In this document: piece after piece, positions 28,982 through 31,900 of the stretch | Layout: each line of letters starts with the position of its first letter | How positions within the stretch are numbered: position 1 is the first letter of the stretch | DNA from: Myxococcales bacterium | GTDB lineage: Bacteria > Myxococcota_A > Polyangia > Palsa-1104 > SHYY01 | DNA: 35,989 bases | Assembly: GCA_021784515.1 (NCBI GenBank) | Contig: JAJXSP010000002.1 | Coordinates: 1-35,989, forward strand | Direction of reading: 5' to 3' | The notes under the pieces: generated by a model | The model's database searches: none | What the model saw: the letters and a program-made list of their open reading frames with translations, nothing else | What the model was told of the DNA's origin: nothing | Translations under genes and position numbers: made by a program

Positions 28982-31900
28982 CTAATTCCCCCGCTGATAC
29001 TCCTGCAGCGACTTCACCTCCGGACTCCGCTCGCGCAGCGCCGCGATCGCCTCGGCGATGGCGCGCGCCATTTGAATCGTCGTCATGTAGGTGACGCCGC
29101 GGTTGAGCGCGCTCCGCCGCAACGAGAATGAATCGCGGATCGCCTGCGCGTCGGTGGTGGTGTTGATCACCATCGCCACCTCGCCATTGATGATCGCGTC
29201 CACGCAGTGCGGGCGCCCCTCCTTCACCTTGTTCACGCCGCGCGCCTCGACGCCGCGGTCGCGCAGGAAGGCGGCGGTGCCATGCGTCGCGAGGATCGAG
29301 AAGCCGAGCCCGAAAAGCCGCCGCGCCACCTCCGCCGCCGCTGGCTTGTCCTCGTCGCGCACCGAGAGGAACACCGTGCCCGATTGCGGCAGCACCGTCC
29401 CGCACGACAGCTCCGCCTTTCCGACCGCCGTCGGGAAGTCGGCGGCGATGCCCATCACCTCGCCGGTGGAGCGCATCTCCGGCCCGAGGATGGTGTCCAC
29501 TCCCGTGAACTTCTTGAACGGGAAGACCACCTCCTTCACCGACACCTGCCGCGGCGTCACCTCGCGAACTCCCATCTCCGCCAGCTTCCGTCCCACCATC
29601 ACGCGCGCCGCCATCCTCGCCCACGGCACGCCCGTCGCTTTCGAGACGAAGGGCACCGTCCGCGAGGCGCGCGGATTCACCTCGAGCACGTAGACGACTC
29701 CACCCTTCACGGCGTATTGCACGTTCATCAGGCCAATCACGCCCAGCTCCCGCGCCAGCGCGCGCGTCTCCTGCCGGATCGCCTCGATGGTCTCCGCCGG
29801 CAGCGAAAAAGGCGGCAGCGCGCAGGCCGAATCGCCGGAGTGGATGCCCGCCTCCTCGATGTGCTCCATCACGCCGCAGACCACCACGTCGTCGCCGTCG
29901 GCGAGCGCGTCCACGTCGCATTCGATGGCGTCGGAGAGGAATTGATCGACCAGGATCGGGTGATCGCCCAGCTCGGCGATCTGGCTGGCGACGCGGCGCT
30001 GCCAGGCGCGCAGCGCCTCCTCGTCGTACACCACCTCCATCGCGCGCCCGCCGAGCACGTACGACGGCCGCACCAGCACCGGATAGCCGATCCGCGCCGC
30101 CACCTCCGCCACCTCGGTCGCCTTGTGGGCGATTCCCCACTTGGGGACGCGCAATCCCAGCTTCTCGACCAGCGCGCCGAAGCGCTCGCGGTCCTCGGCG
30201 CGGTCGATGGCGTCGGCCGAAGTCCCGAGCAGCTTCACGCCGGCGCGCTGCAGGCCGAGCGCGAGTCGGAGCGGCGTCTGCCCGCCGAATTGCACGATCA
30301 TCCCAACCAGCTCACCGGCGCGCGACTCGGCGTCGACGATCCCAAGCACGTCCTCGGCGGTGAGCGGCTCGAAGTAGAGGCGGTCGGAGGTGTCGTAATC
30401 GGTGGAGACCGTCTCGGGGTTGCAATTGACCATGATGGTCTCGAACCCCTCGTCGCGCAGCGCCGTCGCGGCGTGGACGCAGCAATAGTCGAATTCGATC
30501 CCCTGGCCGATGCGGTTCGGCCCGCCGCCGAGGATGATCACCTTCTTTCGCGCCGAGGGCGCCGCCTCGCACTCCTGCTCCCAGGTCGAATAGAGATAGG
30601 GAGTGTGCGCCTCGAACTCCGCCGCGCAGGTGTCCACCCGCTTGTAGACCGGAGTGACGCCGAGCGCCTTGCGCTTTTCGCGAACGTCCAGCTCGGTCGA
30701 TCCGGTGATTTCGGCGATGCGGCGATCGGAGAAGCCCATCCGTTTCCAGCGGCGCATGTCCTCTTCGGGGCTGCCGCCGGACGGCGCGTCGCTCACCAGC
30801 GACTGCTCTTCATCCACGATCGATTTGAGCTGCTCGAGGAACCAGGGATCGATCGCGGTGATCCGGTGCGCCTCTTCCACGGTCATTCCGAGGCGCAGCG
30901 CGCGGCTGATCTGGAACAGCCGGTCGGCGGTGGGGGTGGCGATGGCGCGCGCCAGCTCGTCGAGCCCCATGTCGAGCCCCGGGAACTCGACCGCATGGCG
31001 TCCGGTCTCGAGGCTGCGAATCGCCTTCTGCAGCGACTCGCGGAAGGTGCGCCCGATCGCCATCACCTCGCCCACCGACTTCATCTGGGTGGTGAGCGTC
31101 GGGTCCGCGCCGGGGAACTTCTCGAATGCGAAGCGGGGAATCTTGGTGACGACGTAATCGATGGTCGGCTCGAAGGAGGCCGGCTGCCATTTCGGGTGGA
31201 GGCGATCGGACGTCTCCGGACCTCTGGGGGGACACACCTTCGTTTCTTCGCGGTCGATGGACTCGGTCGGGAGCCGTGGAGGACGGGACGAAGAAACAAA
31301 GGAATGTCCCTCGTCTCCTGAGGCCGCTCGCTTTCTCGTGATGTCGTTCGGAATCTCGTCCAGCGTGTAGCCGATCGCCAGCTTTGCCGCGATCTTGGCG
31401 ATTGGAAACCCGGTCGCCTTGGAGGCGAGCGCCGATGAGCGCGACACGCGCGGATTCATTTCGACAACGACCATCCGGCCGTCGAGCGGGTTGATCGCGA
31501 ACTGGATGTTGCTGCCGCCGGTCGCCACGCCGATCTCCCGGATCACCGCCACCGCGGCGTCGCGCATTCTTTGGTATTCCTTGTCGGTCAGTGTCAGCGC
31601 GGGCGCGACGGTGATCGAGTCGCCGGTGTGGACGCCCATCGGATCGAAGTTCTCGATCGAGCAGATCACGACGACGTTGTCCTTGCTGTCGCGCATCACC
31701 TCCAGCTCGAACTCCTTCCAGCCGAGCACGCTCTCCTCGACGAGGAGCTCACCGCGCGGCGACTGCGTGAGGCCCCACGCGGCGCGCTCCTCGAACTCCT
31801 CCACGTTGTAGGCGATCGCGGCGCCCGAGCCGCCCATCGTGAACGACGGGCGCAGGATCACCGGGAAGCCGATCTCGCGCTGGATGGCGCGCGCCTCGGG

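Follow-up and report, generated by a model that had tools for sequence, protein, structure and literature searches.

The 35,989-nt contig JAJXSP010000002.1 of a Myxococcales bacterium (assembly GCA_021784515.1), which was analysed over its whole length and is referred to here as the window, carries three copies of a palindromic repeat of about 120 nt that lie inside three unrelated open reading frames (ORFs). The copies are named c1, c2 and c3 in window order, and their hosts are a gene for an RnfC-like 4Fe-4S protein, the ergothioneine sulfoxide synthase gene egtB and carB, respectively (Table 1). They probably represent a non-autonomous family of palindromic repeats that spread as DNA, persists within ORFs and is transcribed and translated together with its hosts in the form of a hydrophilic loop. 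The window has a GC content of 70%, and the part of this genome accessible to analysis, which includes approximately 10 kb past its right end, amounts to about 46 kb. Every copy detected there (three of three) is intragenic and sense-oriented.

Table 1. Copies of the palindromic repeat, parts of the carB copy and host genes, with positions in the window.
Feature	Positions	Strand	Description
Copy c1	5236..5353	+	Inside ORF 4972-6114 (RnfC-like); encodes 40 residues; covariance model score 124.1 bits
Copy c2	11662..11782	-	Inside egtB; encodes DRKTRDASCVSSLLANHQPAASIASEETKDRPPRRSKTPEP; covariance model score 121.5 bits
Copy c3	31202..31321	-	Inside carB; 120 nt, encodes 40 residues; covariance model score 127.5 bits
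c3 left arm	31288..31310	-	GGGACATTCCTTTGTTTCTTCG; paired by RNAfold with 31229-31251, in agreement with the RNAalifold consensus helix
c3 right arm	31229..31251	-	CGAAGAAACGAAGGTGTGTCCC; identical to the right arm of c1 at 23 of 23 positions
c3 central loop	31252..31287	-	36 nt, unpaired or weakly paired; about 50% identity between copies
Host of c1, RnfC-like 4Fe-4S protein	4972..6114	+	380 aa; downstream of a KamA-like radical S-adenosylmethionine (SAM) gene
Host of c2, egtB	10957..12261	-	Ergothioneine sulfoxide synthase, 434 aa; Pfam DinB_2 and FGE-sulfatase
Host of c3, carB	28982..32356	-	Carbamoyl-phosphate synthase large subunit, complete, 1124 aa

A 28-nt pattern of the right arm (CGAAGAAACGAAGGnnnGTCCCCCCAGA) has three exact matches in the window, against an expectation of 0.00 derived from 100 dinucleotide-preserving shuffles. 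Furthermore, a covariance model (R1) that was built from the three copies and used to scan the window with all filters off returned the copies at 121-128 bits, while the next best window match reached 12.5 bits. Consequently, the repeat is real and is no effect of composition, and compositional chance, which a preliminary description of this DNA had named among the outcomes that would refute its reading, does not account for the similarities. That description had defined the carB copy by two inverted arms around a 38-nt spacer and had located the same architecture at 5237-5344 (+) and 11671-11784 (-). Both observations were recovered: on the carB-sense strand, c3 reads GACGAGGGACATTCCTTTGTTTCTTCG, followed by a 38-nt spacer and by CGAAGAAACGAAGGTGTGTCCCCCCAGAGG, and RNAfold pairs 22 positions of the arms. 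Its boundaries for c3 (31211-31317) hold for the core of the repeat but not for the full unit, which is wider (31202-31321). Similarity between copies reaches past the arms by some 9 nt on their left and some 25 nt on their right and defines a unit of approximately 120 nt (118-121 nt).

From left to right, the unit is made up of a tail of roughly 9 nt (TCGAAAGAC), the left arm (consensus G-AGGGACATTCCTTyGTyTCTTCG), a loop of roughly 36 nt that varies between copies, the right arm (consensus CGAAGAAACGAAGGTGTGTCCCCCC) and a second tail of roughly 25 nt (AGACGTTCGAAGACGTCCGAAC). Its ends read AGACGAGGGAC...GTCCCCCCAGACG. The arms are 71-100% identical between copies even though these reside in unrelated genes; pairwise identity amounts to 20-23 of 23 positions in the right arm and 17-20 of 24 in the left arm, and to 55-78% in the tails and about 50% in the loop. 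The right arm together with CCCCCCAGA forms a stretch of 29 nt that is invariant between c1 (5304-5332) and c3 (31223-31251) and nearly so in c2 (11683-11712). The left arm carries several substitutions, some of which disrupt pairing. Each arm also holds an internal direct repeat (CTTCG-N3-CTTCG / CGAAG-N3-CGAAG).

All copies fold into long hairpins. The hairpin of c3 on the carB-sense strand comprises 22 bp (7+15, with one bulge) and has a folding energy of -44.4 kcal/mol (z = -3.5 versus shuffles; RNAfold); RNAfold likewise pairs positions 5247-5269 with 5304-5326 in c1 and positions 11747-11771 with 11689-11712 in c2. Across the three copies, stems measure 22-24 bp at -36 to -44 kcal/mol on the sense strand, with z-scores of -2.3 to -3.5 for the sense and -1.8 to -2.4 for the antisense strand. 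Since both strands fold about equally, this is the behavior expected of a DNA palindrome rather than of a strand-specific RNA. The stem could nevertheless be the selected feature, in which case the repeat would be a cis-acting RNA or DNA hairpin that co-regulates its hosts through RNase III or other processing, ribosome pausing or protein binding. The stem is indeed kept at 22-24 bp, one of its pairs has been altered on both sides in c2 (A-U to G-C, a compensatory change), 23-29 nt of the right arm are unchanged between c1 and c3 whereas the loop has drifted, and the three copies share the sense orientation. However, the hosts, which serve pyrimidine and arginine synthesis, ergothioneine synthesis and, in the case of the iron-sulfur protein, a neighborhood with an aminomutase, suggest no obvious common regulon, the near-equal folding of both strands fits a DNA palindrome, Rfam holds no match at its gathering score or at E <=1, and a regulatory hairpin has no need to be positioned inside a conserved enzyme domain. 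We therefore consider a regulatory hairpin improbable as the primary explanation; it would be compatible with a selfish origin followed by exaptation.

The composition of the inserts sets them apart from the genes in which they reside. Host genes have a GC content at third codon positions (GC3) of 0.91-0.95 and the usual pattern of GC1 > GC2 << GC3, whereas the inserts have a flat GC content of 0.58-0.68 across codon positions, without periodicity. In c3, values for the first, second and third positions are 0.63/0.63/0.60, compared to 0.67/0.46/0.91 in the rest of carB; GC3 is 0.68 in c2 versus 0.95 in egtB, and 0.68 in c1 versus 0.91 in the RnfC-like gene. The conserved arms are moreover translated differently. 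The right arm yields RRNEGVSPQ in c1, EETKVCPP in c3 and EETKDRPP in c2, and the left arm of c2 is shifted by a 1-nt indel to give KTRDASCVSS, unlike the other frame reading. Arms that are read in different frames and a flat codon-position GC content indicate that conservation operates at the level of nucleotides and not of protein, as the preliminary description had maintained.

Its statement that the copies are sense-oriented, stop-free and frame-preserving also proved correct. In c1, c2 and c3 alike, every sense frame is free of stop codons, and each copy preserves the downstream reading frame; note that a random stretch of 40 codons at 62% GC would be stop-free with p ~0.31 per frame. The 120-nt element has no ORF of its own. 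The peptides it encodes within its hosts are strongly hydrophilic (grand average of hydropathy of -1.2 to -1.35), with 73-82% polar or disorder-promoting residues. AlphaFold2 models of a CarB fragment and of EgtB, made from shallow alignments, were uninformative (mean predicted local distance difference test score, pLDDT, of 52 for both); the inserts appear as coil at pLDDT ~30, as does much of the remaining model.

These properties bear on the possibility that the inserts are lineage-specific loops of the host proteins that came to resemble each other by gene conversion or convergence, or that they descend from an ancient shared peptide module. The insertion sites do correspond to loops and linkers that vary in length among homologues. 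An origin as host loops is nonetheless very unlikely, given that nearly identical nucleotides are read in different frames, that the inserts show no coding GC periodicity although GC3 in this genome exceeds 0.9, and that their architecture is palindromic. A profile of the A-frame peptides also found no such module among 1.84 billion representative proteins, where it matched just 4 unrelated repeat proteins; this negative is weak because insert-bearing proteins would be hidden within clusters of 50% identity. Similarly, a concatenate of the arm peptides in all frames found nothing at E <=10 in 5.8 billion sequences, a search in which the words are too short to reach significance.

The insertion is best delimited in carB. 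The encoded protein matches the Pfam domains CPSase_L_D1, D2, D3 and MGS over its full length and in a single frame. The E. coli CarB structures (1a9x, 1bxr and 1jdb) align to it up to NDITGGR343 and again from T344-PASFEP, leaving 47 query residues unaligned, and the E. coli sequence that the preliminary description had quoted was thus correct. The c3 segment is absent from E. coli CarB, between R343 and T344, and from all CarB homologues examined (12 of 12). The claim of an insertion relative to homologues therefore stands, but its proposed size of about 48 residues finds less support. The nearest homologue (P0002) reads NDITRDRTGTVTTWQPSSFEP in this loop, and removal of the 120-nt unit from carB leaves the loop RKRAALHPKWQ, whose 11 residues equal in number those of RDRTGTVTTWQ in that homologue. 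Since deletion restores a loop of the length found in the nearest homologue, the event appears better read, on this comparison, as the insertion of 40 codons into an 11-residue, lineage-specific and length-variable loop than as 48 residues replacing GGRT.

A separate repeat lies upstream of carB. Eight units of an 11-nt tandem repeat (CCCCGGATCAA, or TTGATCCGGGG on the carB strand) occupy positions 32373-32471, an array that begins 17 nt upstream of the start codon of carB. The array is 3 units shorter in the ENA assembly described below (an offset of 33 nt) and folds as a long hairpin on the carB strand (-61.6 kcal/mol, z = -3.6). It might serve carB as a variable 5'-leader or as a promoter element.

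The location of c3 in an essential and highly conserved CarB domain, together with a strong hairpin that joins the ends of the insert, would also suit an intervening sequence, one either taken out of the RNA or skipped by translational bypassing, so that the mature enzymes would lack the loop. We judge this very improbable. The three copies are all stop-free and keep the frame, neither of which would be needed if they were excised; they have no similarity to an intron or any other RNA family in Rfam; and the peptides are hydrophilic, loop-like and located at sites of variable length.

The insertion in egtB is supported by comparison with solved structures of the enzyme, which match the query at E = 4e-148. 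At the site of c2, the 33 residues of the query correspond to 8 in the structures 8qf6, 6qki and 6o6l, and approximately 27-30 residues are absent from the 11 of 11 EgtB homologues examined. The site is the linker that joins the DinB and FGE domains. In the third host, the RnfC-like protein, Pfam recognizes Fer4_17, with SLBB and Complex1_51K under their cut-offs, and weak matches to the RnfC chains 9eri_C and 7zc6_C imply about 30 extra residues in the interval of c1. The weak Complex1_51K match (residues 25-90) halts exactly at c1, and when the 40 codons of c1 are removed in silico it extends from profile position 93 to position 106, with a score that remains weak (20.7 to 21.4 bits). These matches are consistent with c1 being an insertion in the RnfC-like gene. 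The same 380-aa gene was called in two further assemblies.

The region recurs in the ENA assembly ERZ27233572, in the NCBI metagenome-assembled genome (MAG) GCA_027325805.1 and in the Logan assembly of SRR13162838. Their identity to the window is 99.9%, alignments being ungapped over c1 and c2, and the carB copy is found at the same model score in the ENA and NCBI assemblies (contigs L018 and L022); the contigs retrieved from Logan SRR13162838 span none of the copies. All data derive from metagenome assemblies and apparently from one environment, which would favor an assembly or library artefact that creates palindromic insertions. Such an artefact is barely credible, however, because the inserts are identical in the window, ERZ27233572 and GCA_027325805.1, which differ elsewhere by single-nucleotide polymorphisms and by three units of the 11-nt tandem repeat, and because the loops differ among the three copies, each of which preserves its ORF. 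Every assembly of the region stops at the same left end, window position 1.

Searches beyond the three copies were negative. No fourth copy was detected by the R1 scan in the window or in the approximately 10 kb past its right end, and a walk with exact proteins gained nothing leftward. The strict right-arm pattern had 0 matches in the GTDB species genomes (596 Gb), and a pattern of the termini had one chance match there, in a Paracoccaceae MAG, that formed no hairpin and scored 11 bits with the covariance model. JGI metagenomes gave 12 matches, all of them due to chance, IMG/VR gave 0 matches for both patterns, and blastn found no match among the plasmids of PLSDB. The organism itself is isolated in the databases. 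For the 11 proteins that were looked up, clusters at 90% identity hold this organism alone (11 of 11), and no protein of at least 90% identity was found in another organism among 15 billion proteins. For EgtB, the best foreign matches share 60-65% identity and belong to Polyangia, Planctomycetota and Acidobacteriota, a scatter that does not confirm the label 'myxobacterium-like' used in the preliminary description. The proteins of the window resemble no Rickettsiales.

The preliminary description had noted a GGAGACG heptamer on both sides of the carB copy and had offered it as a possible target-site duplication. The two heptamers exist, but they are 101 nt apart from start to start, a distance that is not a multiple of 3 and would break the frame, and they match a motif, TCGRAGACG, that occupies both corresponding places in each of c1, c2 and c3. 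A classical target-site duplication was rejected, as the flanking repeats (AGACG, TCGRAGACG) are the identical motif in every copy. Judged from the sequence, the heptamer is either part of the element or a fixed target.

How could such an element come to lie in conserved enzymes? The family probably spread through the genome as selfish or mobile DNA, in the manner of transposable elements of the miniature inverted-repeat type (MITEs), of REPINs (doublets of repetitive extragenic palindromes, or REPs) or of Rickettsia palindromic elements (RPEs). Copies that entered ORFs would have survived where they brought no stop in any sense frame, kept the downstream frame and met a site that tolerates extra length. 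Sites of this kind would be the length-variable loop in the carboxyphosphate domain of CarB, the linker between the DinB and FGE domains of EgtB and a loop within the RnfC-like domain. Transcription and translation of the copies along with their hosts is most likely; this would add a strongly hydrophilic and probably disordered loop of 25-47 net residues and place a 22-bp hairpin in the mRNA.

Several observations weigh against this scenario. Three copies only are known, from about 46 kb of one organism, and their common sense orientation has a chance probability of p = 0.125. No target-site duplication was found, neither a transposase gene nor a gene for a REP-associated tyrosine transposase (RAYT) occurs in the window, and the public collections searched hold no related copy; mobility is consequently argued from the pattern alone. 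An empty site was not seen in a close relative, because the databases hold none. The right arm is much better conserved than the left, a difference that simple neutral decay of a selfish element would not lead one to expect. Finally, removal of all 121 nt from egtB leaves almost no linker between the two domains, which suggests either that the true boundaries in egtB are narrower or that host sequence was replaced.

Spread of a palindromic repeat as DNA into ORFs has precedents, the closest of which are the RPEs. RPE-1 to RPE-10 are interspersed palindromes of 100-150 bp that occur in intergenic and coding regions, in the latter case in-frame in unrelated metabolic genes (PMC1779305, PMC10969869). 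The present element resembles them in being a repeat of about 100-150 bp (here three copies of 118-121 nt within 36 kb), in being a palindrome that folds to a long hairpin (here of 22-24 bp), in lying in-frame in otherwise collinear ORFs, as alignments reveal for CarB and EgtB and as is consistent for the RnfC-like host, and in that a transposase is known for neither. The RPE-like behavior that the preliminary description had recognized, in-frame palindromic insertion in otherwise collinear proteins, is therefore borne out. There are differences as well. The host here is an apparently free-living, uncultured bacterium of 70% GC, whereas RPEs reside in an alphaproteobacterium that is AT-rich and obligately intracellular; the reading frame of the arms differs between copies, whereas each RPE family is described as encoding a conserved peptide (Ogata et al. 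2000, 2002, summarised in PMC10969869 and PMC1779305); and the known copies are all intragenic (3 of 3), whereas RPEs are abundant intergenically as well as in coding regions. We would call the element RPE-like by analogy of architecture and behavior, and sequence homology with RPEs is not expected.

REPs offer a second comparison. In Opitutus terrae, Thauera, Xanthomonas and R. conorii, housekeeping genes contain REPs within their ORFs that code for 20-82 residues (Di Nocera et al. 2013, PMC3733652), so that the restriction of such behavior to Rickettsia that the preliminary description implied does not hold. Like the GTAG- or CGTC-tagged REP dimers and REPIN doublets, the element is built of two inverted units that form one long hairpin, and, on the antisense strand, each arm borders a CGTC tetranucleotide (CGTCT-GGGGGGAC ... 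GTCCCT-CGTCT). A REP unit is defined as a palindrome of 20-40 nt that has a short stem and carries an unpaired GTAG or CGTC tag. However, CGTC REP units are self-palindromic, with stems of 8-9 bp and loops of 4-5 nt, and REPs are predominantly extragenic (PMC3733652). The 23-nt arms of the present element, by contrast, form no hairpin alone, lie 36 nt apart and build a stem of 22-24 bp, and its copies are all within ORFs (3 of 3). In addition, no RAYT gene is present among the genes of the window and the 10 kb beyond it, nor is any transposase gene.

Bacterial MITEs that create ORF fusions are the third known case, with intragenic ERIC sequences, the MITEs of Anabaena and QMITE1 of Coxiella as examples (PMC10969869, PMC3184786). 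The element shares with them its small size, non-autonomy, inverted repeats and lack of a transposase, as well as the property of being readable through as part of a host ORF. It differs in that its arms are not strictly terminal, similarity continuing for about 9 nt on the left and about 25 nt on the right, in that no copy-specific target duplication was found, and in that no parent insertion sequence was encountered in the reachable 46 kb, which contain no transposase. Overall, the element is a new family of an already known kind, in-frame palindromic repeats being familiar from RPEs and from intragenic REPs.

In-frame selfish palindromes in essential enzymes are textbook material for Rickettsia only, with sporadic reports of REPs in a few other phyla, and the case of carB, egtB and an iron-sulfur protein in a GC-rich uncultured lineage broadens their phylogenetic and compositional range. 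The copies also mark two sites that would tolerate 25-47 extra residues, the position after residue R343 of E. coli CarB and the inter-domain linker of EgtB. For annotation, inserts of this type lengthen proteins and interrupt domain matches without being errors. It is conceivable, though we lean against it, that an RPE-like family persists mainly inside the ORFs of a free-living high-GC bacterium at a density of about 1 copy per 15 kb. Should that density apply to the whole genome, loops translated from hairpins would be present in hundreds of its proteins, core enzymes such as CarB among them. Protein-coding selfish palindromes would then be no quirk of reductive intracellular genomes but a natural system for the birth of peptide loops, and a family abundant throughout the genome would be a good model for the turning of non-coding repeats into protein sequence.

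The window contains other repeated sequences. A further dispersed repeat, 64-70 nt long, is present twice (21884-21952 and 35855-35918, both intergenic) with 97-98% identity between the copies; its fold is unremarkable (z = -0.8), and it matches nothing in Rfam. Other assemblies of this organism break off just past one of these copies, the ENA contig at window position 21963, and the window itself ends 71 nt past the other; as contigs end next to it, this repeat probably breaks assemblies. Tandem repeats of 15 nt (28713-28943) give the glyoxalase-domain protein of ORF 28369-28953 (+) a C-terminal, histone-H1-like tail of the AKKPA type, and their number varies, with 194 aa in the window and 171 aa in NCBI MAG contig L022. 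A pair of small genes (DUF433 / DUF5615; 3300-3661), typical of toxin-antitoxin systems, is located just upstream of the KamA-like and RnfC-like genes.

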